A DNA stretch of 49,546 bases from an uncultured delta proteobacterium. GTDB lineage: Bacteria; Desulfobacterota; Binatia; UBA9968. The stretch is taken from assembly GCA_963840855.1 (NCBI GenBank), contig CAWJBB010000035.1, forward strand, positions 1-49,546, written 5' to 3'. How positions within the stretch are numbered: position 1 is the first letter of the stretch; every line of letters begins with the position of its first letter. The notes under the pieces are model-generated. The model had not been told where the DNA came from, ran no database searches, and worked only from the letters and a program-made list of their open reading frames with translations. This document shows, piece by piece, positions 25,379 through 43,517 of the stretch. The translations under genes and the position numbers were made by a program.

Positions 25379-25497
25379 GCCGCCCAAGCCAGCCGAAGCA
25401 ACATTGGGATTTTCATCAACCAGAAAGACGATTGACAACTCGCCGGGCTGGCGATAAAGCTCCGACCAGAAAAAAAGGTTGTTTAAATTTCCTATAC
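25379..25497 (+). mobile_element. ISCR/IS91 oriIS end, copy 1
   Basis: Ends GGTTGTTTAAATTTCCTATAC; repeats 28918..29033. Confidence 0.75.
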
Positions 25498-25711
25498 GTG
25501 GCCGCCGCTGGGAGTCAGGCTAGAGGGGCGAACGGGAAATCTCCCCTCGTCGTGACTTGCACCCGACCAGTTCGCGGTTGGTAGTGAGGCTGCACGATAG
25601 GCAACATGAACGGCCTCCGGAGGTGGTCGCCCCGTTCTTCGCCCCCGTCAACCCGACATAATCTCCCAGACTCGGACGCGGGCCGCCCAGGAGCCCGATG
25701 CCACAGCAGCC

Positions 25712-25800
25712 GCTGGTTCCAAGAAGGAGCGCTCGGGCCACGCCTCGCCGGCGCGGCGGTGGTGCTGGCCGGGGTGATCTGCGTGGCGCTCGCGCGCTGA
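25712..25800 (+). pseudogene. C-terminal fragment of an EamA/DMT-like transporter
   Basis: EGALGPRLAGAAVVLAGVICVALAR*. Confidence 0.5.
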
Positions 25801-25828
25801 GTGGCGGCGCGGCGGTCGGTCGAAGGCG

Positions 25829-25957
25829 TCAGTCGTTGATCTTCTCCACGTTGCCGTTGAAGAAGCCGCTCCTGGAGATGACGAGCGAGTCGGTCGTGAT
25901 GTTCCCGTTCGCGCGGCCCGTCTCGGTGATCTCGACGTTGCCGGTGGCGACGACCAT
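25829..25957 (-). pseudogene. Bactofilin C-terminal fragment
   Basis: Manual translation VVATGNVEITETGRANGNITTDSLVISRSGFFNGNVEKIND*. Confidence 0.65.
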
Positions 25958-26174
25958 AGAGCGTAGCCATCATCAACGGGATCTCCAGGGGCGGGGCGGT
26001 CGGGGGTTGACCCAGGGGGGTCTCGTCAAATGTTCCGAGATATGTGGTCATGTTGGACGGCATTTGGACCATTTTTAGAGACGCGAATACGTCCAGTGTC
26101 CAGGGCATACACGATGGCAGCACGTGTCTGAGCAATGCGTGAGTCACCTCTGTTGACCGTCAGGAAGGGTAAGT

Positions 26175-27974: not shown

Positions 27975-28224
27975 AGTCGCACGGTATCACCGCTGCTCGA
28001 GCTGCCACGGCCGCCAAACCGTTTATAAAGTCGCACACGATCACGTACTTCGCCAAAGCTCTTAACTTCGCACTTCAGCTCAACGGCGCTTTAACGCGCG
28101 CGAATGGAGCCACGTCAACGGCAGTTGCTCTCAACCAGCTTGGTCAAGTGTCCCTCAGTGTTGACGACGTGGACGCTGAGCTTGCAAAGCGTGGCGAGCG
28201 CAGACAGGCCATCCGCCCCGGAGC

Positions 28225-28815
28225 TGTGTACCAAACTCCACGGCTTCAGCCTTCATGCGGCGGTGCGCTGGGGCGCCGATCAGCGCCAACAACTGGAGCA
28301 CCTGTGCCGCTATATCACCCGCCCGGCGATCGCCGACGAACGGCTCAAGCGTAACCGCGCCAGCCAAGTCGTGTTGCAACTGAAGAGTGCATACAAAGAC
28401 GGCACCACCCATGTCGTCATGGAGCCGCTGGAGTTCATGGAGCGCGTGGCGGCCCTGGTGCCGCGCCCGCGTCTGCATCTGATCCCGTTCGACAGGTCTC
28501 AGGGCAGGCCGCTTCGACGGTGTGCTGGCGCCCAACGCGAAGTTGCGCAGTAAAATCGTTCCCGCTCCGGCACAGCGTGCCACTGAGGCTTCAACCGATG
28601 ACGCGCACGCGCAGGGCGCGCCGGCGCGCATGAGTTGGGCCAGGCTGCTCAAACGGGTCTTCGACATTGACATCGACCACTGCCCGAACTGCGGCGGCAG
28701 CTTAAAGATCATCGCCGCAATCGAAGATCCGCCGGTGATTGTCAAAATCCTCAGCCATCTGGGCCTACCGACCCGCGCCCCGCCGCAGCGATTCGATCTA
28801 TTCCAGACAATCTGA
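28225..28815 (+). pseudogene. ISCR/IS91 transposase C-terminal part, frameshifted
   Basis: GFSLHA, LCRYITRP, LVPRPRLHLI, GVLAPNAKLR, WARLLKRVFDID, CPNCGG. Confidence 0.9.
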
Positions 28816-28917
28816 GGAGCCGAAACCGGTTGCCAACGCCAGCCGACGCTGCCGCTCGCTCTGAGTTCGAGCGAGCGGCGCAATAAAAAACAAATCGCGC
28901 CTCTCCGACCGCTGCGC

Positions 28918-29033
28918 CGCCCAAGCCATCCGAAGCAACACCGGGATTTTCACTAAACGCACGTGCGCTTGACCGCTCGCGGGTTCGGCGATATAGCTCC
29001 GGGCAGAAAAAGGTTGTTTAAAATTTCCTATAC
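28918..29033 (+). mobile_element. ISCR oriIS end, copy 2, with outward promoter-like motif
   Basis: Follows the transposase; TTGACC-17-TATAGC; ends TTTCCTATAC. Confidence 0.8.
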
Positions 29034-29397
29034 AGAGCATGTGCAACTCTACAAAGCGTTCGGCTGGCAGGCGACCGAGTTCATCCAGATGCCGCTCTTG
29101 CGCAACGCCGACAAATCGAAGATCAGCAAGCGCAAAAATCCCGTGTCGCTCAACTTCTACGAGCGCGCAGGATTTCTGCCTGAAGCGATGCTGAACTATT
29201 TGGCGCTGATGGGGTGGACGCTGCCCGATCAGCACGAGAAGTTTCCGATCAAAGACATGATCGAACACTTCAGCTTCGATCGCATCAGCCTCGGCGGGCC
29301 GGTGTTCGATTTGACGATGGAAGTACTCGGTAAGAAAGTGTGCCGAACGCGCCTGCGTGACGCGATCGGTGCCCTCGCCGCAGTGAAGCCGAGTTGA
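29034..29397 (+). pseudogene. gltX: Glutamyl-tRNA synthetase fragment with internal deletion
   Basis: [18 protein letters not shown] (KMSKS motif), [19 protein letters not shown] then jumps to the C-terminus MEVLGK. Confidence 0.85.
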
Positions 29398-29399
29398 GC

Positions 29400-30041
29400 A
29401 TGCTCGAAACGCTTCGCTCGGAGCTCGGGCTCGCGCGCAGGGCGATCACGCGGACGTTTCTCGTGGCGCTGCTGGTGTCTGGCACCGCCTTCGTCGTGCT
29501 CTTCAACATCGCGGTGCTCAAAGATGGCGTCGCCTCGGTGGTCGATGCCGTGGTGAAGGTCGGCGTCGCCTTCGGTTTCGCCGTCACGTACGCGGTCACG
29601 CTCGCGCTCGTCGCAGCGGCCATCGTGCTCGGATGGCACTTGTTCGGTGCGTTCCTGGCTTTGCCCTTCGTGCTCACGCCCTTGCTCTTGCTGCTCGTTT
29701 TTTGGCTCGGCGGCGGGCTCGTACTTTCATTTGTTGGCGATTTGCTCCAGGCGCTCGAAACATCGGCGAAGGCCGCGCTCGACAGCGGCGCGTTCGACGG
29801 TCTTCGCGTTGCGCACGCAGGCGGCCCTGCGGCGCTCATCATCTTGCTGGTGATTCTGCCGTGGATCATCATCACGGCGCTGCCTGTGCTGCTCGGGCCG
29901 CCGGTGCTCTTGGCGCTGCTGAAACTGCTTGCCGGGCTCGGGTTCCTGGTTGTCGTCGCCATCGGGCTCGCGCTCCTCGTGTCTCTGCCGGCGCTCGCGT
30001 GGGCGCTCGTCCACCGCGTTCGCGCGCGTCAGCGGACGTGA
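29400..30041 (+). CDS. Hypothetical multi-pass membrane protein
   Basis: Strongly hydrophobic ORF directly after the gltX fragment. Confidence 0.65.
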   Translation: MLETLRSELGLARRAITRTFLVALLVSGTAFVVLFNIAVLKDGVASVVDAVVKVGVAFGFAVTYAVTLALVAAAIVLGWHLFGAFLALPFVLTPLLLLLVFWLGGGLVLSFVGDLLQALETSAKAALDSGAFDGLRVAHAGGPAALIILLVILPWIIITALPVLLGPPVLLALLKLLAGLGFLVVVAIGLALLVSLPALAWALVHRVRARQRT

Positions 30042-30042
30042 C

Positions 30043-30531
30043 GTGGACGAATTCTGCTACCAGCACGCAGGTAAGGCGAAGGCTTCGAACTGCTTCGATT
30101 GCATGCGCCCCATCTGCGTCGTCTGCGTGAAGCTGCACGGATCGCACGACTACTGCCCCGAATGTTCAGCAGCGATAGGCGCCAAGCAACTCAAGGATTT
30201 TTCGGTGTCAGGCTTTGTTAATTTGCTTGCGGCAGAGTGCTGTGTTAGAAGACCGTCATCGCCCGACGCCAGAGAGCTGCGTGGGAAGGGACGAGGCCGG
30301 GGCGAGAGTCGACTGAGAGCAGAGGCGGCCTATGTGGGTCGCGAGGTCGGCGGGATCAGCCTAACGGAGGCAGCCAAATATCTGGGACGGGATCTGAGCA
30401 CAATGTCGTTGGCGTTAAAAAGATTGCGGGAGGAGCTTGCAAGGGACAGCGGGCGGCGGATGCAGATGGAGCGGCTGTGCACCCGACTTCGCCAGGGACG
30501 GAGACGTAACTACCAAATAAGCAAAGCCTGA
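30043..30531 (+). pseudogene. B-box-like Zn-finger N-terminus fused in frame to a RAYT C-terminal HTH
   Basis: CYQH...CFDCMRPICVVC...YCPEC, then SLTEAAKYLGRDLSTMS...ISKA*. Confidence 0.6.
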
Positions 30532-30544
30532 CACTTGCGTGTGC

Positions 30545-30750
30545 ACCAGAACCCGTCTGTTCGTGATGACGCTGGGCTATAGCCGCAAAGCGGTACGCTT
30601 GCTAGTCTTCCGTTCCAGTTCGCGGGTGTGGGCCGAACTGCATGAGAAAGCGTTTCGCCGGCTCGGTGGCAGTCCGCATCTGGTGGTGCTCGACAATCTG
30701 CGTGAGGGCGTGGTTGCTGCTGACATTTACGATCCCACTTTAAATCCCCT
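30545..30750 (+). pseudogene. istA: IS21 transposase fragment
   Basis: LFVMTLGYSRK, AFRRLGG, VVLDNL, YDPTLNP. Confidence 0.85.
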
Positions 30751-31299
30751 AGTGGTCGATTTGGGGGCTACTCAGACGAGGAGCAAGATCGTATCAAGAA
30801 CGACCTGATTTCCGTTCTCCGGGAAATCAAAGTCTCAGAAGCGGATATTCATACGTCCGCGAACTGTTGGACGAAATCGATGTCGGCAAGGCGTCAAAGA
30901 ATCGCTGGATGCGGTGCTGGCCAAACCTTTGCCGCAGGAACCATGGCGGCTGCTGATAGGAATCTGGCGGCTACAGCATGGTCGACGATTTCAAGGCGTA
31001 TCCATGAATGCTGTGCTGCCAGTCCCACACGACCGCGCGGGTGTATCCATTCGTTTACACACGGCGTGAACGACGTTTCCTTTCTGCTAAAAACCATCGG
31101 GCCACGAGCTAGCGTCGCTTTTGCACTATTCGTGTGTATTCCTCGCACGTTGCACGACGATAAACGCCTTGTGCCACCGTGCCTCTGCCTTTAGGATCCC
31201 TGGCAGTTGTTTTGCATTTATCACTTGCGCAAGATCGCGTCGCAGTGGAAACGAAAAATATTAACCTACTGCACTGCTTCTCGATTGCATCCATCCGTC

Positions 31300-31328
31300 A
31301 GAGAGAAAGGGCGTTTAATTTTCTATAC
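31300..31328 (+). mobile_element. ISCR oriIS-like end, copy 3
   Basis: AAAGGGCGTTTAATTTTCTATAC. Confidence 0.6.
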
Positions 31329-31356
31329 GCACTATGCGATTTTCAGGGAGGACCTA

Positions 31357-32001
31357 ATGAGAACCGCACGACTGGCTTTTCAAGTGTTAATCGCCGTGCT
31401 ACTTTTACCCGGTCTTGTGTATGCCGACGAGGCCGACGGCGTCACAGACAAACCCAGCGTTCAACCACCCACGACTCACTCACCAACACCGTCACCTGCG
31501 GTATCACGACCGCCGCCGACTCCTGTCGTGGAAAAACAGGATACGGCTCGCTACGAAACCTGGTTGCAGGCGAAGGGCAAGGAGCCGACGGAGTCGCGCG
31601 AGGCCACCTCGCTGCGTATCGGCGATTGGGGGTTCTTCGCGCACGGTTCGGTGCCGGGGCGACCACTCGATCGCGCCGGCCTCGACAAGGCGAACCACGC
31701 GATCGAACTGGGGGAGAAGGGCGGCGACTGGTACGTCTTTCTGACCACGAAGGGTCTCGATGCCGCGGGGGCACTACGTCGCGTCGCGTGGGTCTATTAC
31801 GCGGCCGATCTCACGCCCGAGCGTGCCGCGGAGATGCCGGGGGGCGCGAAGGTCACCGCACCGACGCTCACGACCGGCACGGATGGAACCGTCACGCTCC
31901 AGGGCTGGCTGACCCATCCGCCGAGAATGAGCTCGCCGAGGCGCATCACGGTCCGGGCAACGCCGACCGGCGCTTCGTTCAAGTCCGATTCCGCGGAGTA
32001 G
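31357..32001 (+). CDS. Secreted hypothetical protein with Pro/Thr-rich linker
   Basis: GGAGG RBS; signal peptide ending VYA. Confidence 0.7.
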   Translation: MRTARLAFQVLIAVLLLPGLVYADEADGVTDKPSVQPPTTHSPTPSPAVSRPPPTPVVEKQDTARYETWLQAKGKEPTESREATSLRIGDWGFFAHGSVPGRPLDRAGLDKANHAIELGEKGGDWYVFLTTKGLDAAGALRRVAWVYYAADLTPERAAEMPGGAKVTAPTLTTGTDGTVTLQGWLTHPPRMSSPRRITVRATPTGASFKSDSAE

Positions 32002-32231
32002 TGAGCACGTTCCGGCCGTATCAAGCTACGTGCCCTGCCTGCCGCCACGAATGGCAAGTCGAGCTCGCGCGTGGCCTGCACATTACGCGGCTGCCGGATA
32101 TTCGCGAGCGGCTGCTGCGAGGGACGTTTCAGGTATTCGCCTGTCCCGCGTGCAATGCGTCCGAGACTGACCAAAGGGCGTCGCATGGCAAGCCTACAAA
32201 TCACGGAGCCTACAGGGTGAGATTGAACTGA
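32001..32231 (+). pseudogene. CpXC-like Zn-binding protein, truncated
   Basis: TCPACRH...RERLLRGTFQVFACPACN, then the pattern breaks. Confidence 0.6.
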
Positions 32232-32233
32232 AC
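32221..32233 (+). repeat. Left part of a recombination site interrupted by IS91
   Basis: GATTGAACTGAAC; continues at 34662. Confidence 0.8.
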
Positions 32234-32581
32234 GGATAGGTTTTAACCTGAATGCGAGCTGAGAGCGAATGGGTGACAGCAGTTACAGTCGGACGCATTC
32301 AGGATAAAACCCGTTGGACTAAAGCGTTGGGTGAAGCAGTGACGGATGTCTATGGGGATTGTACCGGGGAGATTGGCCAAAGCAGACGTAACAGCACGGT
32401 TGGTCGTGAGAAGACCACGCAGTCCGCGCAGTCTTTGACGCAACGATTGGTCGCGACCGGGTAGCGAAACGGAATAGTGAGTTGGCCAATAAGACGTGAA
32501 GTAATGAAACAGGTCGAACCGATGCGTGGGCTCTGGCACAGAGCGATGCAAACACACGGTCTTTTCTTCGTTGATCAATCA

Positions 32582-33647
32582 TCACGAAGAATCCCATGGT
32601 GTGGGGACGGCCAGGCCAGCAAGGAAGACCAGAGTTCCTTTGTGGCAAAGAGGGCATCGGGTGATATCGATGCCGGTGAGTTGGAGCATCAGCTCCTGAA
32701 TTGATTTCGAGGGGAGCTTGGGCAGAGCGGGATTGAGGTCCAGGAGTTGACGGCACTTTGCGAGAAGGCTTTTGGATCGGTTGGCTAGAAAACCGAAGTG
32801 ACGCACGCGCACGAAACCTTTGGGGGTCACATGGAGCAAGAAGCGGCGGATGAATTCGTGGGCATCGAGGGTCATGGTCCTTTTTCGGTCGTGATCTTTT
32901 CGGTCCCGGTAACTGAAGATGACTTCTCCGTTATGGGCTGAGAAAATCCGATCATTGGAGAGCGCCACGCGGTGCGTATAGCGGCCGAGGTAGTCAAGGA
33001 CATGGACAGGGGATTCGAAAGGTTTCTTGGCGTAGACGATCCAGGATTTTTTTCTCAATGCTTTGATCAGGAGGTGAAAGGCTACGGCATGAGCCAGACA
33101 GGCGCTCTGACCGACAAATAGGAGCGTGTTTTGCGCGAAAGCCTTTTTGAGCAAGTCGAGAAACTTACCCTGGAAAACGATGCTCAGGGCTTTAACAGGG
33201 AAGAGAAAATCTTTCCGGGCTGGAGTCCAGCGCTTTTGATCGAACGACAGAGCTCCAGCGGGGACCAGACAATGGAGATGAAAATGATCCAACAGGGTCT
33301 GGTCCCAAGTATGGAGCACCGTGATGAAACCGATTTGTCCACCAAGACGAGTGTGGCCGAAATCAACGAGCGTTTCCCCAACGGCTTTGAAGAGATGACC
33401 TAAAAGAATCTTTTTGTTGGTCAGTATCAGACCATTGAGTTCGTGCGGCAAGGTGAATACCAGAGTCGCAGCGCTCGATGTGGCCGCCCAGGGCCGCCGT
33501 GCGGCAGCGCTCCACGGCCTCGATGACTTTGAGATGCGAAACCGGCAACGGCTGGTTGCGGCGATACGACTCGCCATAGGCACGAAAGATATCGGCCAGT
33601 TCAGCGCCGCTTCTTGCCGCTGCCGCCTGATCCGCGACAGCTCGCAT
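32582..33647 (-). pseudogene. IS91 transposase with deletion/frameshift near 33462
   Basis: CRTAALGGH N-terminus joined out of frame to VFTLPH, LHTW, HFHLH, YLGRYTHR; the family Zn-binding segment is missing. Confidence 0.88.
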
Positions 33648-33660
33648 GAAGCTCAGCCCA

Positions 33661-34503
33661 TCAGTGAGGGAGCTGGAGCCGGTCCAGGGGACTCACGGCA
33701 GAATCCACGTTCTGTGGCCGTAGCCTCAAGTACCGCTGGGTGGACAGAAGGGAGGTGTGCCCCATCAAAAACTGGATCGAGCGCAGATCCACACTCGCCT
33801 CCAGGAGATGCGTGGCAAAACAGGCACGAAGGCTGTGAATCCCATGGCCCTTCTTAAGCCCTGCTCTTCTCTTCGCCGAGCGGAAGATGTGCCAGGCTTC
33901 CCCTCGGCTTAACGGGCCGTTCTTGGCTCGGTTGGGGAAAAGCCAGATGGAAGGCCGGTAGCGTTTCCAGTACTGGCGTAACTCCACAAGAAGGTTCTGC
34001 GACAAGATGCCATAGCGGTCCTTGCCGCCTTTACCCCGTTTTACACGAAGAGTCATGCGCGCAGCATCGATGTCGGCGAGCTTGAGATTGACCAACTCGC
34101 CGACTCGGAGTCCTGCCGCATAGGCGGTCATCAGTAAAACACGCTGCTTGAGACCTCGGGCCGCACCGATCAAGCGCACGACTTCGTCCGGACTGAACAC
34201 CTCGGGCAGAGGTGAAGGCTTCTTTCTCGGAGGGATAAACAGCTTGTTCTCATCCCACCCCAAAGTTTCATTGTAGAAAAACCGTAACCCACAACAGTAC
34301 CCCGTCAGACTATTCGGCGACAGCTTCCGTTCCACCGTGAGGTGCACCAAAAAAGCTCGGATGTCCTCCTTGCTGAGCTGATCCGGTGATTTGTGGTGAT
34401 ACCTGGCCAGTCGGCTTACCGCGTAGACGTAAGACTCCTGTGTTGCTGGAGAGAAGTTCCGCAGCTTCATCTCCTCGATCATTCGGTCACGTAAAACTCC
34501 CAT
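33661..34503 (-). CDS. Tyrosine recombinase (integrase)
   Basis: YAAGLRVGE, GKGGKDR, HSLR, MGH, TQRY. Confidence 0.93.
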   Translation of the reverse strand: MGVLRDRMIEEMKLRNFSPATQESYVYAVSRLARYHHKSPDQLSKEDIRAFLVHLTVERKLSPNSLTGYCCGLRFFYNETLGWDENKLFIPPRKKPSPLPEVFSPDEVVRLIGAARGLKQRVLLMTAYAAGLRVGELVNLKLADIDAARMTLRVKRGKGGKDRYGILSQNLLVELRQYWKRYRPSIWLFPNRAKNGPLSRGEAWHIFRSAKRRAGLKKGHGIHSLRACFATHLLEASVDLRSIQFLMGHTSLLSTQRYLRLRPQNVDSAVSPLDRLQLPH

Positions 34504-34661
34504 AATTGCCTCCTTGAATTAATTTGATCCACGGAGGCTACCACCGCGCACACGCAAAGAGTCAAAGGAAAAGATTGATGAAAAGTGACCGCGGGCGGAC
34601 TACTGAAAGTACATCGATGGCACGGACCTCTTCCCCCCACCGCGAAGCGGTTTAGTCCAAC

Positions 34662-34714
34662 GACGCAACGGACAAATCTCATAGGATTTGTTAGATGGAG
34701 AAATCAGTTCAATC
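34662..34714 (+). repeat. Compound recombination site, right part
   Basis: (C)GACGC-AACGGACAAATC-tcatag-GATTTGTTAGAT-GGAGAA-ATCAGTTCAATC. Confidence 0.78.
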
Positions 34715-34808
34715 CTAGCATCGCGCTTTTTCTTCGATCAGAACGTGATAAATATAGTTGGCTAGAAGGGTGAGGTCAGCTTTTCCGAAGTCACGCGAGG
34801 TTTGGGCC

Positions 34809-35720
34809 ATGCTGCGAAACCACATCTTGCGTATCGACGATCCCGCCGCCGCGAAGCGTTGGCGCATGTTCTGGCTGTTCGTTTCGCTGATCGTGCCCAC
34901 GCCGCTCGTCTACATTCTGGCCTCTCAAATGGCACTCTTCCGCGGCCTGCCCGTGTTTGCTCCGGCGGATTGGGTTGTGGCACGCACCACCGAAGCGGAC
35001 GGCGATATGACGCTGTCGGGCCTCTTTTTTGTTGTGGGACTGTTCGCCATTACGCTCGCGCTGTATTTTGGCGCCGACCATTTAAAGCGGTTGTACGGGC
35101 AGCGCCACGACGATTTGCGCGCCGAAGCCCTCTTCGCGAGGATCTCCGGCGGCGCCGATGCGGATGAGCCCTTCGTCCTTTATCTGCGGCCTTTCGGCTC
35201 TACCGCCGCTTTCAAGGTTCGCGTGCGCTACGGCAAAGCGGTGCGTGTCTATGAGCTGGAAGAGGAGCTGTCGCGCGCGGCGCGGCCGTTCGGGCCGTTG
35301 ATCGCGCTTGGCGAGAGCCTTGAACATGTCGGAGCGGGCCGCATCAAGTCTACCGACGCCAACTGGCAGGAGGCCGTCGGTCGCCTGATGTGCAAGGCCT
35401 TGCTCATTGTCATCGTTCCCTCCTCGCGCCCTGGCACGCTCTGGGAGATCCAGCACCTGCTCGCAGAGAACTATATTGCGAAGACGGTATTTATCGACGC
35501 GCCGACCGCGAGCGCCACACCCTTCGCGCAGGAGGTGGAATGGGGCGACATCGGCCGGCTTCTGTCCAGCCGCGGGTACCAATGGCCCGCCGACGATCCG
35601 AAAGGGCGCCTCATCTTCTTCGGCGCATCGAAAAGCCCCCAGATCAGTGAGCCGCTGAATTTCCACGGATCGACCTTCTTGCGTGCTGCGGTCAAGCGCG
35701 TCATCGCGCTCGCTGCTTGA
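34809..35720 (+). CDS. Hypothetical membrane protein with C-terminal alpha/beta domain
   Basis: Two hydrophobic helices; PFVLYLRPF, GAGRI, WQ, PGTLWEI; start uncertain. Confidence 0.65.
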   Translation: MLRNHILRIDDPAAAKRWRMFWLFVSLIVPTPLVYILASQMALFRGLPVFAPADWVVARTTEADGDMTLSGLFFVVGLFAITLALYFGADHLKRLYGQRHDDLRAEALFARISGGADADEPFVLYLRPFGSTAAFKVRVRYGKAVRVYELEEELSRAARPFGPLIALGESLEHVGAGRIKSTDANWQEAVGRLMCKALLIVIVPSSRPGTLWEIQHLLAENYIAKTVFIDAPTASATPFAQEVEWGDIGRLLSSRGYQWPADDPKGRLIFFGASKSPQISEPLNFHGSTFLRAAVKRVIALAA

Positions 35721-35829
35721 GCGCGCGTTAATCAGTTCCTCGACATTGACAGTGGTTTTTCCGGCAATCTGCGCCCGATCGGGACCCGGCGAGCCATCGA
35801 CTTTAGCCTCTCCTGAAAAACCCACTTCC

Positions 35830-35880
35830 CGCTCTTGAGAATCTTATCGACGTGTGTAGCAACACGCGGGAAAAGGCAAC
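35830..35880 (-). pseudogene. Short remnant of an ABC_sub_bind gene
   Basis: LFPRVATHVDKILKSGK resembles RAATYVDKILKGAK. Confidence 0.55.
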
Positions 35881-36001
35881 TTGAAGCCGAGACCCACAGT
35901 TCTCGCCGAAGACGGCATCGGCGGAATTTTGAGCCCGGCATTAGGCACAGTTCACATCAGCACCCAAGTTTTGCTGAATCGGAAGCTTAAAGACGGTGCC
36001 G

Positions 36002-36057
36002 CGACGTGTCAGTTAGATGCGGCGTAGGATTGGTTCGTTGGAGAATTCAGTTCAATC
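36002..36057 (+). repeat. Compound recombination site lacking its first arm
   Basis: CGACGT-GTCAGTTAGATG-8 nt-GATTGGTTCGTT-GGAGAA-TTCAGTTCAATC. Confidence 0.75.
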
Positions 36058-36084
36058 CTGGCAGCGCAGCTTCGTTTTCGTCGA

Positions 36085-37068
36085 TCACCTAATCACTTTA
36101 TCCGCCCGCGCCAGCACATTCGGCGGAATCGTGAGACCGATCTGCTTCGCTGCTTTCAGATTGATGATGAACTCGAACTTTATCGGTTGCTCGACGGGGA
36201 GGTCGGCTGGTTTAGTGCCTTTGAGTATCTTGTCTACGTAAGTGGCCGCGCGCCGGTCCAGGTTGAGGAGGCTCACGCCGTAGGACATAAGCCCACCGGC
36301 TTCGACGTACCGGGGTTCGTGGTATATCGCCGGGAGTCGGTTCTTTACCGCGAGGTCTGCAATCTGTGCCCTCTGAGCACCAAGGATGCCGCTCGCTAGT
36401 ACGAGGACTCCGTCCGCCCGCCCCTTGCTCACTGCTTGAAATGTATTCTCAATATTGTTGAAACCTAAAACGTCGAGATGTTGAAGCGTCACTCCGAACG
36501 CCTTCGCGGCGAGTTCCAGCTCTCTCATTTGTCCGCCGGCAAAGCTGGTTGAAACCCGGAGGACGGCCAAGCGAGAGAGTTTGGGGACGACCTCTTTCAG
36601 AACCTCCAATCGTTTACCGTTTAGCTCCGGGGCAAGAGCGGACAGTCCCGTGATGTTTCCACCAGGCCGCGCCAGGCTGGCGATGATACCGTCGCCAACG
36701 GGATCGGCATCGTTGGTCATGACAATGGGAATCGTATTGGTCGCTTCCTTGACGGCACGGGTTGCGGTTGAACCGCTCGTGACGATGACGTCAAATGTGA
36801 GACGCACCATTTCGGCCGCGAGTGCCGGAAGGCGCTCGAGTTTTCCGTCAGCGGATCGCCAATCAATAACGATGTTTTTACCCTCCACGTAGTGAAGGTC
36901 GCGCAGTCCCTGGCGGAATGCCTCGTGGCGGGCCGTGTTAGCGGAAAGGGAGACACCCCCTAGGTATCCAATCCGCGGGACTTTCTTCGGCTGCTGCGCG
37001 TCGGCTATGACTCCAATAGCAAGTAGAATCACTACGAACAGGATTGACGAGACACCAGCTTTTTTCAT
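36085..37068 (-). CDS. Orphan ABC substrate-binding protein (ABC_sub_bind type)
   Basis: AQQPKKVPRIGYL, SLARPGGNITG, ADLPVEQP; alternative start 37080. Confidence 0.92.
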   Translation of the reverse strand: MKKAGVSSILFVVILLAIGVIADAQQPKKVPRIGYLGGVSLSANTARHEAFRQGLRDLHYVEGKNIVIDWRSADGKLERLPALAAEMVRLTFDVIVTSGSTATRAVKEATNTIPIVMTNDADPVGDGIIASLARPGGNITGLSALAPELNGKRLEVLKEVVPKLSRLAVLRVSTSFAGGQMRELELAAKAFGVTLQHLDVLGFNNIENTFQAVSKGRADGVLVLASGILGAQRAQIADLAVKNRLPAIYHEPRYVEAGGLMSYGVSLLNLDRRAATYVDKILKGTKPADLPVEQPIKFEFIINLKAAKQIGLTIPPNVLARADKVIR

Positions 37069-37172
37069 TGCAGACACCATTTGCGCATTATGCGGAAGGT
37101 AGCAGAGAAAAGTGGCATTTACGACACAAGGCGAAAGGTATTAGTTGAGTGGGAAGGCCAGAATCAGCCTAA

Positions 37173-37238
37173 GATTGAACTGAACGACGCAACGGACAAA
37201 TCTCACGGTATCGATATGTGGGAGAATTCAATTAAATT
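37173..37238 (+). repeat. Complete compound recombination site
   Basis: GATTGAACTGAA-CGACGC-AACGGACAAATC-tcacgg-TATCGATATGTG-GGAGAA-TTCAATTAAATT. Confidence 0.78.
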
Positions 37239-37540
37239 ACACAATAACGTTGTGCTCGTAACGCGCGTGTTATGCCGCCCCGAGGGTTCATTCCAAAGAC
37301 TTATTCGCTCCTGGAGGCAAGTCCGGTCCAGAGCGAGCGAACGATGGCGCGAATGATCGATTCATCGAACTTGCCACCGTGCACGCCCAGCCGTTCGGGA
37401 TCCCTTTGCACTAAGACCCCCAAGACGGCAATTGAACGAAGTCCGGCGCTCGGCCCGAAAAAATCGTGATGAGGTTGCAAACCTATAAAGGCTGGAAGCG
37501 GTAGCAGACCAACGAGGCAGTCTGAGGCATCATTTGCATC

Positions 37541-37675
37541 CTATTCGGATACGGCTCTTTTCAAACCTCTCCCAAGGTTCTGTATATCTTCCCCAATGCC
37601 GTGAAGCGTTGCGCATCCTTCTAAGACGAAGACGACGAAGAGCAACGCCCAGAGAAGCAACATTTTCTTTTTCAT
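37541..37675 (-). CDS. Entericidin EcnA/B-family lipoprotein
   Basis: LEGC lipobox, ATLHGIGEDIQNLG; GGAGG RBS. Confidence 0.8.
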   Translation of the reverse strand: MKKKMLLLWALLFVVFVLEGCATLHGIGEDIQNLGRGLKRAVSE

Positions 37676-37759
37676 TTTTGCCTCCAAGGCCGAGCACGGT
37701 TTCTGTTCTCTTAATAGCCTAACATTGATGATCAAGCAGCCAGAACTTAAAAGCGAACT

Positions 37760-38191
37760 TTAACCGCCATGGATGAGCCCAATCACGTCTTCGATGATGT
37801 CGAGGATGCGCTCTGTGCGCCGGTCGATGAGAATGACATTGCGTTCGAGGATCACCCGCTCCCAATGTTCCGGCAAACGCGGCAGGCGTCTATCCAAATG
37901 AACCGGAAGCGGCTGCAACCGTTTTTGTAGGCCTGGCGGCAGCTTGCCATCTCTATCTAGCTTCTTTTGTAAACCCGGCGGCAGGTTCCCACCCCGTTTA
38001 GCCAACCCTGGTGGTAAGCCCTTCTGCTTAGCTTTTTTGCTCTTGTGGTAATATTCTTCGATGATCCGCCGTTCTTCCGGCAGAAAGCGCTCCGCCCGAT
38101 TCGTATCGAGCGCCGCGACCGGATCTCGATGGCAGAGCGACGCTGCCACGAAGAGAGAGAACATTAGAAAGGATCTTCTCTGTAGCTTCAT
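37760..38191 (-). CDS. Secreted protein with LPPGL repeats (RcnB-like)
   Basis: Signal peptide; three LPPGLxK repeats. Confidence 0.7.
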   Translation of the reverse strand: MKLQRRSFLMFSLFVAASLCHRDPVAALDTNRAERFLPEERRIIEEYYHKSKKAKQKGLPPGLAKRGGNLPPGLQKKLDRDGKLPPGLQKRLQPLPVHLDRRLPRLPEHWERVILERNVILIDRRTERILDIIEDVIGLIHGG

Positions 38192-38736
38192 AATCCGTTT
38201 CCTTCCGCCGATTCAGAACTGAATATTGCTAGTCTATTTGTTATGGCCGTTGCCATGCGCTGCGCCACTTCCGCCGCCTTGGGGAAACAACTCCCCTGGA
38301 TGTGCCGGCGGTACAGCCGCTGAAGAGCAGTACCGACGGGAGCAAACATACGGCCTGGAATAAAGTGCGATTGTTGTTCATATGCCGCCAAAGAGACGCA
38401 ATAAGCACACCAAAGTCTTTGCCAGCAATTTTGGTCGATTTTGGAAAGATCTCGGCAACTATCCGGTAAAAAAGGCTATTCTCACGCGACGAAAAACGTA
38501 ATCTTTACATATCGAATCGATTTACGTCACACCTCACCCGTGAGAATTGGCAAAATATAGTGGGATTTCGTCTTTCGGCTGCAAGGTTACTGTGGCTGGT
38601 AAGTGCCGCTGAAGCTTATTTGGAAGCTGGGGTAAGGCGTTGTATGCGGCCGGGATCGATCCCAATTTGTATTTTGTGCATCACAAGTGGCGGAAAGCGG
38701 CGTAATTCTCCCTTCAACGCTGCACGGAATTAGCAG

Positions 38737-38766
38737 CTTTTGGTAGATGGAGAAATCAGTTCAATC
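38737..38766 (+). repeat. Putative recombination site (GGAGAA spacer)
   Basis: CTTTTGGTAGAT-GGAGAA-ATCAGTTCAATC. Confidence 0.75.
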
Positions 38767-38794
38767 CTGTAATCGCCGCTTGGTTTTTCTGCCA

Positions 38795-39025
38795 TCACTT
38801 GATCAACTTGGTCGCCCGCGCGACCACCTCCGGTGGGATCGTCAGGCCGATCTGATTCGCTGTCTTGAGATTAATCACCAGCTCGAACTTCGTCGGTTGC
38901 TCCACCGGAAGATCAGCGGCCTTGGCTCCCTTCAGAATCCTGTCCACGTAGTATGCGACGCGCCGGTAGCTCTCCGCGGGGTCCGCCCCGTAGTACATGA
39001 GCCCACCGGCATCTGCAAATTTTTG
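38795..39025 (-). pseudogene. 3' fragment of an ABC_sub_bind gene
   Basis: FADAGGLMYYG...ADLPVEQPTKF...ATKLIK; 5' part absent. Confidence 0.85.
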
Positions 39026-39067
39026 ACGATAAGATGAGAGGATCTCCTGCGTTACTATTTCGTTCAT

Positions 39068-40063
39068 TTACTTCTTCTTTGAAGCAACCTTGATGGGAGC
39101 TGGAGTCGCCACAAACCCGTGGGTTTCCCCATTGATGTCGTACCGCCCGACGAATTGCCCGTCATTATTCATCCCGCCAAGATGATTTAGCCACGCACCC
39201 TCGGGCAGCTTGATGTCGTAAACTATACCATCATCATAGAAACCCAACTTGGAACTGGTCCCATCGTTGGGCTCCATTACTGCTAGGATCGCGCCGTCGT
39301 TATTCATATCAACAGCGTACCAGAATGGCCGTCCACCCTCTAAGTCCTGTAATAGTGCTAAAGGCACACTGACAACCCCGTTGTCATAAACAAAGAAGCC
39401 ACGCTCTAGATACTCGCCAAACTCATTGAAGATGATATGTTCACCCAATACCTGTCCGCGCCTGTTAACCGCAAAGCAGTTAACGTAGGTTGATGGTTCA
39501 GCTCCAGGAAACGGGTCAATCTGGCGGTAAGCGCCGCCTCGGGAATCCCATAAAAAACAATGCGTGCTGAAGTCCTGCGCCCAGAACTGTCCCACAACAT
39601 AACGCCCGTTTGGGCTTACTCCCTGAGCAAAAGTATAATAAGCGCCGGGGTAATCGAGCAGAGTTAATTGACCGTCGGGCCGCTTTATAAACCCCGACCA
39701 AGCATCATCGCCCGTTTTACAGAATCCTGCGACATCTCCCCAGTTGCTAATTCCCTGTCCCTCTGTGTGAATACTGCCTGGGCAAAAATGCGCTTTCGGT
39801 TTTAAGCCTCGCCTGTTGGTCGTGATAGCGCCCAAACCGCTAGGAAAGTTGGCACCGGCCAAGATTTCGCCGTGGTCATTTATGTCGATCATCTCTGACC
39901 CGGATACTTGCCCCGGTGCCACTATATTTAGTGTCTTGAACTGATAACCGATCTCCGCCGCCCCGGCGCTTGTCGCCAAGAATACCGCCGCACCCACCGC
40001 TAAAACTAATGCCGGCAGGAATAGCAACGGCATCATGCGAAATATTTTTCCTCGGTATTTCAA
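39068..40063 (-). CDS. Secreted repeat protein (HAF-repeat-like, likely beta-propeller)
   Basis: Repeats INDHGEI, ISNWGDV, VNRRGQV, MNNDGQFVG, THGFV; signal peptide. Confidence 0.7.
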   Translation of the reverse strand: MKYRGKIFRMMPLLFLPALVLAVGAAVFLATSAGAAEIGYQFKTLNIVAPGQVSGSEMIDINDHGEILAGANFPSGLGAITTNRRGLKPKAHFCPGSIHTEGQGISNWGDVAGFCKTGDDAWSGFIKRPDGQLTLLDYPGAYYTFAQGVSPNGRYVVGQFWAQDFSTHCFLWDSRGGAYRQIDPFPGAEPSTYVNCFAVNRRGQVLGEHIIFNEFGEYLERGFFVYDNGVVSVPLALLQDLEGGRPFWYAVDMNNDGAILAVMEPNDGTSSKLGFYDDGIVYDIKLPEGAWLNHLGGMNNDGQFVGRYDINGETHGFVATPAPIKVASKKK

Positions 40064-40531
40064 AGCTCGTTTCCCCTTTCAATGATTTCGTCGAGTCGGA
40101 GAAGACTCTCCAAATGGGGTTATACTGCGAACCGGATGCCGTGCGGATATGAACCGTGTTGGTATGGTGTGCTCCCAAAACCACCAACTCACCCTATCCA
40201 GGAAGGCCCTGAATCTGCGTTGCTAATTGAGACCGGGTGTTTTGGCCTGGGGCGATATCTGCGGGATTCTAGATGGAAAAATGCGGTAAATGGCCAAGTA
40301 TGTTAACAATAGAATTTAGCGCTCAAAGGCGCTTCGATGTACCAATATTCTATCCATGAGCCTCACGCGACAGCAAAAACCTTTCGGACAGCGTTCTCGA
40401 AGATTTGCGGAAGGCAAACGAATTGGGAGGAGAACGCTTAGCGGTCCGAACATTCTTTTAAACTTTAACCCTGAATGGTGGATGAGAAAGAGGTTGATGG
40501 TATACGGACAAAAGGCAAAAAACTTTGCCGA

Positions 40532-40561
40532 GATTGAGTTGAAGGAGAATTCAGTTCAATC
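40532..40561 (+). repeat. Most symmetric recombination site
   Basis: GATTGAGTTGAA-GGAGAA-TTCAGTTCAATC (10 of 12 arm positions complementary). Confidence 0.8.
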
Positions 40562-40588
40562 CTGGCATCGCTGCTTGGTTTTCTGCCA

Positions 40589-41560
40589 TCACTTGATCAG
40601 CCTATTCGCTCGGGCGAGTACCTCCGGCGGAATCGTTACCCCGATCTGCTTCGCCGTCTTGAGGTTTATCACAAACTCGAACTTCGTCGGCTGCTCCACA
40701 GGCAGATCGGCAGGCTTGGTTCCCTTCAGAATTCTGTCCACGTAATAGGCAACCCGTCTCAACGAGTCGACAAGATTCGGACCATAGGTCATAAGACCAC
40801 CTGCTTCCGCGAACTCCGTCCACCCGGAGATGCTGGGTATGCGCCGCCGAACTGAAAATTCTGCGATTTCCTTTCGGCGGGCCAGCGTCACCGCATCCGG
40901 AAAAACGATGAGCGCGTTGGCGCGTTCACGGACTATCGCGGCAAAAGCGTCCTCAAAATCGCCGGGAGCCTTTACTGTCAGGTACTGGAGCGGCAGGGCA
41001 AATGCCTGCGCAGCCACTTGCGTTTCTTTCAATTCCCGTTGTTCGCCGGCATGCCGCGGGTTGGCCAATGCTGCCAGCCGAGAGATCCCCGGAACGGCCT
41101 CCTTAAGCAACTCGACCCGTTTGCCCGCCAACTCGGCAGCAAAGAAAGTCACCCCGGTGACGTTGCCCCCGGGCCGCGCCAGGCTGGCGACGATGCCGGC
41201 ATCCACGGGATCACCGCTATAGCCCATAACGACTGGGATATCTTTGATGCTTTTGGCAGCGTAGGGTGTCGCCGGCCCTATTGATACAATGACATTCACC
41301 TTGAGATGAACCAGCTCAGCTGCAAGATCGGGAAAACGTTCTAACCTTCCCTCCGCATACCGCTTCTCCGTGATGATGTTTTGGCCCTCCACGTACCCCG
41401 CATCTCGGAGCGTCTGTTCAAGCGCATCGATTTGGGGAGCCGGGACATTTGCAAGAATGCCGATCCGGGGGATTTTCCCGGCTTGCTGCGCCTCGGCTAT
41501 CACGACAACAGTAAGCAGTGTCACTGCAATCAGGAATGATGACAGACTAGCTTTCTTCAT
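40589..41560 (-). CDS. Orphan ABC substrate-binding protein (ABC_sub_bind type)
   Basis: Same family motifs; GGAG RBS. Confidence 0.92.
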   Translation of the reverse strand: MKKASLSSFLIAVTLLTVVVIAEAQQAGKIPRIGILANVPAPQIDALEQTLRDAGYVEGQNIITEKRYAEGRLERFPDLAAELVHLKVNVIVSIGPATPYAAKSIKDIPVVMGYSGDPVDAGIVASLARPGGNVTGVTFFAAELAGKRVELLKEAVPGISRLAALANPRHAGEQRELKETQVAAQAFALPLQYLTVKAPGDFEDAFAAIVRERANALIVFPDAVTLARRKEIAEFSVRRRIPSISGWTEFAEAGGLMTYGPNLVDSLRRVAYYVDRILKGTKPADLPVEQPTKFEFVINLKTAKQIGVTIPPEVLARANRLIK

Positions 41561-41648
41561 TGCACACTCCGTTCCCGACGTTACTTTTCCATATGTTTGT
41601 TTACATTCGGACGAACTCATTCGCGCGTAACACCGAAAGAGCAGGTCG

Positions 41649-41882
41649 CTATTTGCCCACTGCCTTCAGTGCGGCCCTTGCTCGTTGCTCCGGCGTGGCC
41701 CAGTCGGCGGGAAGGTTCTTGGCGCGAGTGATCTTGGAGAGTTCATTCAAGTACCGCTCGGACCGGCCAAGCTGCTCCATGCGTTGGTCAATCACGTAAG
41801 CTTGAACAGGGTCGGTCGAATAGTTGGGGACTTTAGCGCGTCGCCATCGGCCCGCGCGATCCTGCTTCTTGCCTATAAGCAC
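41649..41882 (-). CDS. Small hypothetical protein, phage ABA-sandwich-like
   Basis: VPNYSTDP...ATPEQRARAALKAV; start uncertain. Confidence 0.45.
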   Translation of the reverse strand: MLIGKKQDRAGRWRRAKVPNYSTDPVQAYVIDQRMEQLGRSERYLNELSKITRAKNLPADWATPEQRARAALKAVGK

Positions 41883-42005
41883 GCCTTCATGCTTGTGGAT
41901 ATTCTTTCAGCCGAACACTTTCTGCGCCGTTGCGGGCGTCTAATGCAGGGCCAGACCGCGTTATATCTTCAACTTTCTGGGCCATACAGTTTTGAGAAAC
42001 AGGCG

Positions 42006-42035
42006 ACGTTTGGAACAACGAGTTTCAATTCAATC
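42006..42035 (+). repeat. Degenerate site (right arm conserved)
   Basis: TTCAATTCAATC at 42024-42035; spacer and left arm differ. Confidence 0.55.
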
Positions 42036-42052
42036 CTAGCATCGCCGCGTGG

Positions 42053-43036
42053 TCACTTGATCACCTTGTTCGCTCGGGCGAGCAACTCCGGCGGAATCGT
42101 TAGCCCGATCTGCTTCGCGGCTTTCAGATTGACGATGAATTCAAACTTCGTCGGCTGCTCCACCGGGAGATCGGCTGGCTTGGCGCCTTTGAGAATTTTG
42201 TCGACATAAGTGGCGGCGCGCCGGTCCAGGTTGAGGAGGCTCACGCCGTAGGACATAAGCCCACCGGCTTCGACGTACCGGGGTTCGTGGTATATCGCCG
42301 GGAGCCGGTTCTTTACCGCAAGGTCTGCAATCTGTGCCCTCTGAGCACCAATGATGCCGCTCGCTAGTACGAGGACTCCGTCCGCCCGCCCCTTGCTCAC
42401 TGCTTGAAATGTATTCTCAATATTTTTGAAATCTAAAACGTCGAGATATTGAAGCGTCACTCCGAACGCCTTCGCGGCGAGTTCCAGCTCTTTCCTTAGT
42501 CCACCAGCAGGGCTGGTTGAAACCCCCAGGACGGCCAAGCGAGAGAGTTTAGGGACGACCTCTTTCAGAACCTCCAATCGTTTACCGTTCAGCTCCGGGG
42601 CAACGGCGGACAGTCCCGTGATGTTTCCACCAGGCCGCGCCAGGCTGGCGATGATACCGTCGCCAACAGGATCGGGATCGTTGGTCATGACAATGGGAAT
42701 CGTATTGGTCGCTTCCTTGACGGCACGGGTTGCGGTTGAACCGCTCGTGACGATGACGTCAAATTTGAGACGCGCCATTTCGGCCGCAAGTGCCGGAAGG
42801 CGTTCGAGTTTTCCGTCAGCGGATCGCCAATCAATGACGATGTTTTTACCCTCCACGTAGTGAAGGTCGCGCAGTCCCTGGCGGAATGCCTCGTGGCGGG
42901 CCGTGTTGGCGGAAAGGGAGACACCCCCTAGGTATCCAATCCGCGAGACTTTCGTCGGCTGCTGCGCGTAGGCGATGACGGCAACAGCAAGTAGGATCAC
43001 TATGGACAGGATTGCCAAGACACCAGCATTTTTCAT
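42053..43036 (-). CDS. Orphan ABC substrate-binding protein, close paralog of 36085..37068
   Basis: Near-identical central region and upstream DNA. Confidence 0.92.
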   Translation of the reverse strand: MKNAGVLAILSIVILLAVAVIAYAQQPTKVSRIGYLGGVSLSANTARHEAFRQGLRDLHYVEGKNIVIDWRSADGKLERLPALAAEMARLKFDVIVTSGSTATRAVKEATNTIPIVMTNDPDPVGDGIIASLARPGGNITGLSAVAPELNGKRLEVLKEVVPKLSRLAVLGVSTSPAGGLRKELELAAKAFGVTLQYLDVLDFKNIENTFQAVSKGRADGVLVLASGIIGAQRAQIADLAVKNRLPAIYHEPRYVEAGGLMSYGVSLLNLDRRAATYVDKILKGAKPADLPVEQPTKFEFIVNLKAAKQIGLTIPPELLARANKVIK

Positions 43037-43143
43037 TGCAGACACCATTTGCGTATTACGCGGAGGGTAGCAGAAGAAAAGTGACATTTACGACAGAAGG
43101 CGAAAGGTATTCGTCGAGTGGAAAAACCAGATTTTTCGCCCGA

Positions 43144-43173
43144 GATTGAACTGAACGACGCATCAGTCAGATG
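43144..43173 (+). repeat. Putative recombination site (CGACGC spacer), last in the array
   Basis: GATTGAACTGAA-CGACGC-ATCAGTCAGATG. Confidence 0.78.
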
Positions 43174-43517
43174 TTACGAAAATGTCTCGGTTCAAAAACC
43201 TCGTTGAAATGAAAAACGAATTTCGCAGTTCTTCCGGGCCCTTCATTCAACAAACACACAGGGCCAAAAGAAATGTTTTTGAAGGAGCGTATTGTGCGGA
43301 AGGAGAAAACAGCTCAATTTCGGAGGGAAGCGAAAAGGGGACGCGAACCTTTTCTGATGCTCAACGCATTGCTTTTCTGGGTCTACCGCGTGGATGAAGA
43401 GTAAATTCCAACCGCGCCATTTTCGCGATCCGCATCCTCCGGTCTTCTGAGCCAGAGACGATGAGGGACGAACGAAATTCGCGAGCGGCAACAGCCAAAC
43501 AAACGAAGCGCGCGGGT

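Follow-up and report, generated by a model that had tools for sequence, protein, structure and literature searches.

A four-arm compound site that probably joins gene modules in chromosomal cassette arrays of uncultured soil bacteria

Contig CAWJBB010000035.1 of an uncultured delta proteobacterium (assembly GCA_963840855.1), whose 49,546 nucleotides are taken in full as the window of this analysis, contains at positions 37173–37238 a compound site of 66 bases in which four related arms surround two different six-base centres, CGACGC and GGAGAA. The structure of the site, its conservation, and its place within gene arrays in other genomes suggest, at somewhat better than even confidence, that it is the junction of adjacent gene modules in a chromosomal cassette array and comprises two back-to-back core sites of the Xer/dif type, acting as double-stranded DNA. 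Of these two cores, termed LH and RH, LH would close the module on its left and RH would open the module on its right.

On the plus strand the site reads GATTGAACTGAA (arm 1, 37173–37184), CGACGC (37185–37190), AACGGACAAATC (arm 2, 37191–37202), the gap TCACGG (37203–37208), TATCGATATGTG (arm 3, 37209–37220), GGAGAA (37221–37226), and TTCAATTAAATT (arm 4, 37227–37238); this four-arm layout, first proposed in a sequence-only reading of the window, was confirmed on inspection. The outer arms 1 and 4 are inverted copies of each other, and each inner arm is a weaker inverted copy of the outer arm that it adjoins, so that the compound site consists of two imperfect palindromes in tandem, placed back to back. 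The LH core (37173–37202) comprises the conserved arm GATTGAACTGAA, CGACGC, and a variable arm; the RH core (37209–37238) comprises a variable arm, GGAGAA, and a conserved arm of consensus TTCAGTTCAATC, which arm 4 of this site matches at 9 of 12 positions. Within compound sites the two cores are separated by a gap of 6 or 8 nt. Each core has inverted arms of 11–12 bp around an asymmetric centre of 6 bp, although the twelfth arm base varies between A and T and an 11-8-11 geometry is therefore equally possible.

About nine copies of the site, whole, half, or degenerate, lie in the window, all between 22.6 and 43.3 kb and all given here as read on the plus strand. The sequence-only reading had reconstructed one of them from 32221 and 34662–34714, and the reconstruction is correct: arm 1 and one base of LH (32221–32233) have been severed by an insertion from the remainder of the site (34662–34714), which consists of GACGC, arm 2 AACGGACAAATC, the gap TCATAG, arm 3 GATTTGTTAGAT, GGAGAA (34697–34702), and arm 4 ATCAGTTCAATC (34703–34714). 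Removal of 32234–34661 restores a site with the layout and spacing of that at 37173–37238. A further four-arm site, proposed at 36002–36057 with an 8-nt gap, holds in part: the gap (36020–36027), the centre, here CGACGT (36002–36007), arm 2 (GTCAGTTAGATG, 36008–36019), arm 3 (GATTGGTTCGTT, 36028–36039), GGAGAA (36040–36045), and arm 4 (36046–36057) are all present, but arm 1 is absent, positions 35990–36001 showing no match to it. Sites with GGAGAA only occur at 22576 and 40532, as had been described, and there is another at 38737–38766. The first of these (AATTGAGTTGAT GGAGAA TTCAGTACAATC, 22576–22605) is followed by a pseudogene or fragment of family PF04392 on the minus strand (22633–23247); that at 38737–38766 (CTTTTGGTAGAT GGAGAA ATCAGTTCAATC) has merely a degenerate LH-like stretch upstream; and that at 40532–40561, a nearly perfect palindrome (GATTGAGTTGAA GGAGAA TTCAGTTCAATC), precedes the minus-strand PF04392 gene 40589–41620. 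Additional instances not previously described are an arm 4 remnant lacking GGAGAA (TTCAATTCAATC, 42024–42035), followed by the minus-strand PF04392 gene 42053–43087, and an LH site (GATTGAACTGAA CGACGC ATCAGTCAGATG, 43144–43173) that lies 56 nt upstream of the start of the same gene; a degenerate RH (TATTGTGCGGAA GGAGAA AACAGCTCAATT, 43290–43319) stands 116 nt past this LH, across an expanded inner segment. A chance origin of these copies is excluded. The RH pattern GGAGAANTCANTTMAAT, with at most two mismatches, matches the window seven times against 0.19 expected, a number reached in 0 of 100 shuffles; the 12-mer arm, with the same tolerance, matches 11 times against 3.76 expected, which 1 of 100 shuffles reaches.

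The PF04392 (ABC_sub_bind) solute-binding-protein genes of the window lie directly to the right of arm 4, on the minus strand. Whole genes are found at 36085–37080, 40589–41620, and 42053–43087, and fragments at 22633–23082 and 38795–39067, each directly right of its RH site (22576–22605 and 38737–38766, respectively), and near 25253. Of the five distances from the stop codon to the end of arm 4, three are of 27 nt, one is of 28 nt, and one of 17 nt; arm 1 is placed 92 or 56 nt upstream of the gene starts. The module at 36058–37172, which holds gene 36085–37080 between the RH at 36028–36057 and the LH that begins at 37173, displays the full unit of arm 4, antisense gene, and arm 1; a compound site is thus the meeting point of two units. 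Other units in the window hold open reading frames (ORFs) outside PF04392, including those for a CigR-like small protein and a HAF-repeat protein (39068–40063, after the C-terminal PF04392 fragment 38795–39067).

Querying species-representative genomes with the seed GGAGAANTCAGTTCAATCC returned 87 stretches (numbered as loci, L003, L016, and so on), about 17 of which are expected by chance according to our estimate. Loci were accepted if the 12 nt before GGAGAA matched the inverted arm at six or more positions, and by this threshold 67 of the 87 contain the same architecture. The 20 that fail consist of 12 of the 13 from unrelated taxa (Staphylococcus, Synechococcus, Parabacteroides, and others) and eight that are untitled or from the soil group of metagenome-assembled genomes (MAGs). 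The accepted loci come from MAGs of uncultured soil bacteria titled delta proteobacterium (22 of 24 accepted), Ca. Binatia (13 of 16), Acidobacteriota (10 of 11), Verrucomicrobiota (6 of 6), Chloroflexota (2 of 2), other deltaproteobacterial or Thermodesulfobacteriota MAGs (7 of 7), and Actinomycetota (1 of 1), these labels being the titles given by depositors to MAG records in which many contigs are short and mis-binning is possible. Sites also occur on contigs of 0.3–3.5 Mb labelled delta proteobacterium and on one of 1.76 Mb labelled Chloroflexia.

Across 38 compact sites from these genomes and the window, the outer arms are conserved and the inner arms vary, as the sequence-only reading had stated from the window. 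Mean column identity is 0.90–0.91 for arm 1, 0.97–0.98 for spacer 1, 0.71–0.73 for arm 2, 0.54–0.67 for the gap, 0.70–0.76 for arm 3, 0.99–1.0 for spacer 2, and 0.91–0.94 for arm 4, the values for spacer 2 and arm 4 being inflated by the way in which the sites were found; arm 1 and spacer 1 lie outside the seed of the collection scan, though the LH regular expression that picked the sites names both. More generally, RH statistics are biased by the seed and by the site-calling regular expressions (at most three mismatches). Both spacers are nearly invariant. The earlier proposal had been made to depend on conservation of spacers and spacing in a larger set of instances, and it survives this comparison: LH-to-RH intervals are 34 nt or shorter in 48 of 65 cases, and of the 90 LH sites listed, 20 show an interval of exactly 30 nt and 18 one of exactly 32 nt, with intermediate inner segments of 53, 115, 140, 177, and 220 nt upward. 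Of 155 conserved arms outside the seed matches (0–1 mismatch), 50 run directly into CGACGC and 35 into TTCTCC, the complement of GGAGAA. Nearly perfect simple palindromes (n = 21) have GGAGAA as their spacer in 11 cases, CGACGC in seven, and other spacers in three; the occurrence of such palindromes for both centres fits LH and RH each being a complete site alone.

In the related loci the order RH, gene, LH, RH, gene, LH is repeated as arrays. The suggestion that paired sites are junctions between adjacent cassette ends is therefore well supported, arm 4 opening a module and arm 1 closing it; the conserved arms face the cargo, and the orientation of the sites alternates along the arrays. RH-to-LH modules number 58, with a modal length of about 1,100–1,150 bp, while 33 modules lie between two RH and four between two LH. 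A full PF04392 gene is present in 22 of the 58 RH-to-LH modules and a fragment in three; the remaining 33 have none. Wherever a module of any type matches this family, the gene is antisense to the LH-to-RH direction (35 of 35). Module ORFs of at least 70 aa number 194, and 150 of them were scanned against Pfam; 25 belong to PF04392, and 75 have no Pfam family, many of these being possibly spurious ORFs. Other cargo includes several methyltransferases, TENA/THI-4, DOPA dioxygenase, glyoxalase, cupin, SnoaL, and alpha/beta hydrolase proteins, as well as response regulators, cytochrome c, GH65, trehalose-phosphate synthase, serpin, and HepT. Such cargo is that of a cassette array rather than of one operon.

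The same module is found in different contexts. Two contigs of one MAG (L016 and L079) carry a TENA/THI-4 module at 98% identity, and the copy in another MAG (L014) is 91–93% identical to these; identity begins at one conserved arm and ends at another. The DNA beyond this module differs on both sides between L016 and L079 and differs downstream in every pairing, while between L014 and L079 similarity persists for about 100 bp upstream. A second module, of 2.68 kb, is common to L012 and L059 at 95% identity, with homology running from about 3 nt before GGAGAA to the CGACGC spacer and unrelated DNA outside both ends; in L059 the LH centre is followed directly by an arm of the conserved type and the next gene. 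Where homology ends near sites, it does so in every case at an edge of the conserved arm-plus-spacer block (about 10 ends). A separate stretch of 1.7 kb, at 96.5% identity, joins L017 (7344–9063) and L018 (7346–9058), on contigs labelled Chloroflexia and delta proteobacterium; this may reflect recent transfer, gene conversion between paralogues, or a problem of labelling or binning. As both of its ends lie inside PF04392 genes, homologous exchange between paralogues probably also occurs.

Conformity of LH and RH to the geometric definition of an Xer-type core site, as judged from arm and centre lengths, suggests how such modules could move. Sites of the dif/pdif type have an 11-6-11 structure and flank modules in C/D and D/C orientations (PMC12907356). 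By our comparison, the conserved arm TTCAGTTCAAT matches the XerD-side arm TTATGTTAAAT printed there at 8 of 11 positions. Five observations argue for double-stranded action: the geometry of 11–12 + 6 + 11–12 equals that of dif/pdif; the two centres are asymmetric and hardly vary, which is what a need for like to pair with like would predict; simple palindromes that are nearly perfect occur with each centre; RH-only modules are common; and covariation is no higher than in shuffles under either folding model. An Xer-family tyrosine recombinase would bind the arms and exchange strands within the centres, recombining only like centres, LH with LH and RH with RH. Direct repeats of one type would then recombine to release a circle that carries a single module and a single compound site; such a circle would be inserted by the reverse reaction, and one exchange at each type of site between two arrays would swap modules without inversion.

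The enzyme could be a host XerC/D-like pair or a 301-aa Xer-like enzyme that is at times encoded between LH and RH. A gene for the latter fills the inner segment in L003 (4386–5286) and L019 (597–1575), lying exactly between arm 2 and arm 3 and bordered by LH and RH. Its product scores below the cut-offs of the XerA, XerC, and XerD models and far below that for integron integrases; its best plasmid relatives are XerC/XerD proteins of 31–37% identity. The family comprises 370 proteins at E ≤ 1e−30, mostly of 301 aa and mostly on short contigs; relatives are named XerC or XerD by their sources, and a Ca. Binatia MAG contains one of them. The ribosome-binding region of the gene is overlapped by a strong inverted repeat, TCTCCTCTCCCT...AGAGGGAGGAGGA.

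In its working the system would come closest to Acinetobacter plasmid dif modules and, as an array, to integron cassette arrays or clusters of attC sites lacking integrases (CALINs). As described in PMC12907356, pdif/dif modules share with the present sites a 6-bp centre between two inverted arms of about 11 bp each, with one arm conserved and the other variable; alternating orientation (C/D, D/C), so that each module lies between inverted sites; and cargo of usually one or two genes, mostly with no adjoining dedicated recombinase gene. Alternation of opposite sites, which defines dif modules, is found here in the 58 RH-to-LH modules and 65 LH-to-RH intervals, from which the 33 RH-to-RH modules depart. 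In contrast to pdif/dif modules, the two orientations here carry two different, nearly invariant centres, and the sites mostly occur as back-to-back pairs 6–8 bp apart, so that every second "module" is empty. The present arrays are also chromosomal, belong to uncultured soil bacteria, and carry mainly orphan solute-binding-protein genes; 3 of the 11 positions in their arm depart from the XerD arm, and the compound site has no match in 72,556 plasmid records. The window's module itself finds weak matches to PF04392 genes in rhizobial plasmids and nothing closer in that collection.

The sequence-only reading had further proposed that two incompatible spacers permit directional exchange, as in recombinase-mediated cassette exchange with heterospecific lox sites. 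This is plausible, on the basis of inference and one example, the module common to L012 and L059. The heterospecific lox/FRT pairs used for such exchange resemble LH and RH in their shared arms, their incompatible asymmetric centres, and their position on either side of a cassette, an arrangement that would allow exchange without inversion or loss. They are a laboratory design, however, whereas the sites described here are natural, mutually inverted, and paired with a neighbour's site, and exchange between them is a prediction.

The insertion that interrupts the LH site of the window (32234–34661, minus strand, 2,428 bp) is an element of the IS91 family. It encodes a 111-aa ORF (32243–32578), a Y2 transposase of the HUH type (32582–33583; PF04986, 2.4e−58; NF033538, 7e−88), and, upstream, an Xer-like tyrosine recombinase (33661–34503). 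Its excision restores GATTGAACTGAAC+GACGC exactly, without duplication, and an end of the element adjoins GTTC. According to PMC13181058, the IS91 family has an HUH Y2 transposase, makes no target duplication, and inserts next to GTTC or CTTG; by its transposase, the lack of duplication, and the adjoining GTTC, the element belongs to this family. Whole copies occur in the window, L056 (8831–11354; 86–92% amino-acid identity), and L005, the window copy being about 126 bp shorter than that of L056, within the N-terminal region of the transposase; only distant IS91 matches were found in the plasmid collection. The recombinase-side end of the element adjoins (A/T)CGACG in the window, L056, L043, L027, and L005, and its other end adjoins GATTGAACTGAAC in the window, L056, L055, L005, and L024. 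Among the four right-end loci compared (window, L056, L043, and L027), the inner arms beyond the element differ. At least five distinct compound sites carry the element at one and the same base of the LH arm, and since its ends meet the same LH junction in several loci, it has inserted repeatedly at one point of LH. Targeting of this one point would be a second, independent sign of a distinct DNA structure or of a protein-bound target.

Several observations weigh against double-stranded Xer-type action at these sites. Both readable copies of the in-site recombinase gene are damaged, by a 27-aa deletion in L003 and a frameshift in L019. A local tblastn search with the two recombinases over about 1 Mb of accepted loci found recombinase genes only in L003, in L019/L082, and, borne by the insertion element, in the window, L056, and L005; most loci thus have no recombinase gene in their flanks. 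Among the loci compared, no recombination product, circle, or empty-versus-filled pair was directly seen, and homology breakpoints, about 10 of which are informative, are unresolvable inside the conserved arm-plus-spacer block. The spread across phyla is insecure, since the labels derive from MAG titles and many contigs are short and possibly mis-binned. Finally, the tight gap of 6 or 8 nt and an asymmetry between the strands hint at single-strand folding. Of 48 sites, 39 fold more stably as single-stranded DNA on the strand antisense to the genes; the top-minus-bottom difference in fold energy averages −0.98 kcal/mol, against −0.50 kcal/mol in shuffles (p = 0.017, n = 38). On that strand the mismatches of the inner arms are G·T in 87 cases vs A·C in 30, compared with 17 and 14, respectively, in the outer arms.

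Folding is central to the alternative that ranks second, behind double-stranded Xer-type action, and that we consider unlikely: that the whole unit of 66–68 nt is an attC-like single-stranded hairpin, one strand of which is recombined by an enzyme resembling an integron integrase and encoded elsewhere. In such a hairpin, arm 1 would pair with arm 4 as the R box and arm 2 with arm 3 as the L box, CGACGC and GGAGAA would face each other unpaired, and the gap of 6–8 nt would form the terminal loop. The attC length range includes 66–68 nt, and attC sites are themselves targeted, by IS1111-attC elements and group IIC introns; the present site, too, is targeted by an insertion element. The better-folding strand, being antisense to the cargo genes, corresponds to the integron bottom strand, and the excess of inner-arm G·T over A·C mismatches is likewise as this reading would have it. 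Further features that attC sites and CALINs share with the present system are a layout of four repeats, R''-L''-L'-R', the outer two conserved and the inner two variable, together with two spacers that do not complement each other and a centre that is short and variable (PMC8946536); co-oriented, mostly single-gene cassettes, here with many unknown ORFs, separated by imperfect palindromes of about 60–70 nt (PMC4889954; PMC8946536); and arrays that often have no integrase nearby (PMC4889954).

However, covariation does not favour a folded site: in an alignment of 20 sequences (A1), base-pair covariation exceeded shuffles neither for pairing between outer and between inner arms nor for each core as its own hairpin, and under the former pairing (arm 1 with arm 4, arm 2 with arm 3) shuffles attain a paired fraction as high as the real one in 125 of 500 cases and as high a covariation score in 197 of 500. 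The attC consensus RYYYAAC...GTTRRRY occurs in 0 of the 38 compact sites on either strand, the nearest approach to its end boxes being ATTGAAC and GTTCAAT, with one mismatch each. The arms of 11–12 bp with a 6-nt bubble are longer than the 7-bp attC boxes. Sites of the attC family fold as imperfect palindromes that have extrahelical bases, a central spacer left unpaired, and a terminal structure that varies, and they conserve structure rather than sequence (PMC8946536), whereas the sequence here, spacers included, is highly conserved. Inner segments extend to hundreds or thousands of bases and can hold a gene, and half sites are frequent, with modules lying between two RH in 33 cases. No intI-like gene was found in the window or in the flanks of any fetched locus, and the tyrosine recombinases that were found score below the integron-integrase cut-offs. 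As that family is defined, the site is not a member of attC.

Less probable again is a reading of the compact site as the joined ends of a mobile unit of about 1 kb that encodes the Xer-like recombinase (arm 1-CGACGC-arm 2, gene, arm 3-GGAGAA-arm 4); the site would then be a miniature non-autonomous derivative, comparable to miniature inverted-repeat transposable elements or REPINs, that spreads selfishly between genes, and the intervening modules would be ordinary DNA, mobilised now and then by flanking copies. The recombinase-bearing units of L003 and L019 do end in the same way as the compact site and are 91% identical in DNA although the labels of their MAGs name different phyla; the recombinase family has very many members, most of them on short contigs, a pattern shared with repeated mobile DNA; and inner segments of intermediate length (53–220 nt upward) exist. 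Yet neither a target-site duplication nor a consistent insertion target was found at the outer arms, and the orientation to cargo is fixed, as the uniformly antisense solute-binding-protein genes indicate. The distance to the ends of the PF04392 genes of the window is also nearly fixed (27–28 nt in four of five, 17 nt in the fifth), RH-only half sites delimit modules as well, and two different conserved centres are left unexplained. This reading partly overlaps the preferred one of module junctions. The REPIN/RAYT system likewise has short palindromic repeats in doublets, and such repeats also lie on either side of an enzyme gene, but there the enzyme is an HUH Y1 transposase, whereas here it is a tyrosine recombinase and the repeats bracket cargo modules in arrays; no Y1_Tnp (RAYT) domain was found among the 150 module ORFs or the window ORFs scanned.

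The weakest alternative, to which we give very little credence, takes the sites as HUH rolling-circle signals (surrogate IS91-family ends, with one-ended mobilisation of neighbours) or as operator or terminator elements of the PF04392 family. In its favour, GTTC is present in the conserved arm when this is read in the sense of the genes (reverse-complementing the plus strand of the window), LH having two copies; an IS91-family element adjoins LH in the window, L056, L043, L027, L005, L055, and L024; and PF04392 genes have sites shortly beyond their stop codons and upstream of their starts. Against it, a Y2 transposase is present only in the three loci with whole copies, the four-arm design with two specific centres is foreign to IS91 ends, the stems are A/T-rich and have no T run, and 33 of the 58 RH-to-LH modules have no PF04392 gene. 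As described in PMC13181058, IS91-family ends have a subterminal palindrome next to GTTC or CTCG, and GTTC or CTTG are the targets. Scans of the whole window for Rfam families at gathering score and for tRNAs found nothing. Promoter and terminator scans of 34500–43500 gave no more matches than shuffles did, and none of these matches falls on a site; the only nearby terminator-like hairpin (40529–40514, minus strand) lies beside an RH-only site rather than inside it.

With module junctions of the Xer type as the preferred reading, it is possible, though we hold this only tentatively, that the arrays represent an undescribed, IntI-independent platform for gene capture parallel to integrons, in which heterospecific pairs of Xer-type sites, an autonomous unit with the 301-aa recombinase, and a dedicated parasite of the IS91 family serve mainly to diversify orphan solute-binding proteins in several phyla. 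Its distinctive features are two fixed, different centres tied to the sides of the module, back-to-back pairing, the recombinase gene within the pair, and the dedicated insertion element. A full-text literature search, in which subscription journals were not covered, found no description of such sites or arrays. If the sites recombine as proposed, a cassette-shuffling system common to soil bacteria of several phyla would go unreported by current tools; integron finders seek attC and IntI, and dif-module searches seek sites like the host dif. Such a system would account for the assembly and exchange of large families of orphan PF04392 binding proteins, would be a natural example of two incompatible centres keeping the orientation of cassettes, and could supply new recombinase/site pairs for genome engineering.

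Two further candidates were rejected. Arm 4 and its flank might have been the 3' fragment of a tRNA gene, as at the attachment site of an island, but the window contains no tRNA. A single array at the replication terminus, exploiting Xer/dif, was set aside because one MAG has arrays on at least four contigs (L016/L019, L079, L053, and L030/L046). The cumulative GC skew of the window reaches a maximum near 33–34 kb and then falls, and gene orientation converges there; this peak would fit a replication terminus but may merely reflect the strand of the genes.

The array in the window is interrupted for about 9 kb (23290–32220) by mostly unknown ORFs, possibly inserted mobile DNA, among them a 489-aa ORF, a 599-aa protein with a weak LysM match, an rve integrase-core fragment (30539–30808), and a CpXC-domain protein (31179–32231). 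A second repeat family, ending in AAAAAGGTTGTTTAAATTTCCTATAC, is located between the first RH site and the remainder of the array, with copies at 25333–25497, 28870–29033, and 31302–31328 upstream of plus-strand ORFs; the first copy adjoins a truncated PF04392 3' end (25253–25332). A motif of the form CGGACAAAA...CGGACA often precedes RH-only sites, as in L010, L050, L054, L062, L070, and the window at 40500–40531. Read on the gene strand, this motif forms a hairpin with TTTTGTCCG after it; it is similar to AACGGACAAATC, the inner arm of the 30-nt class.

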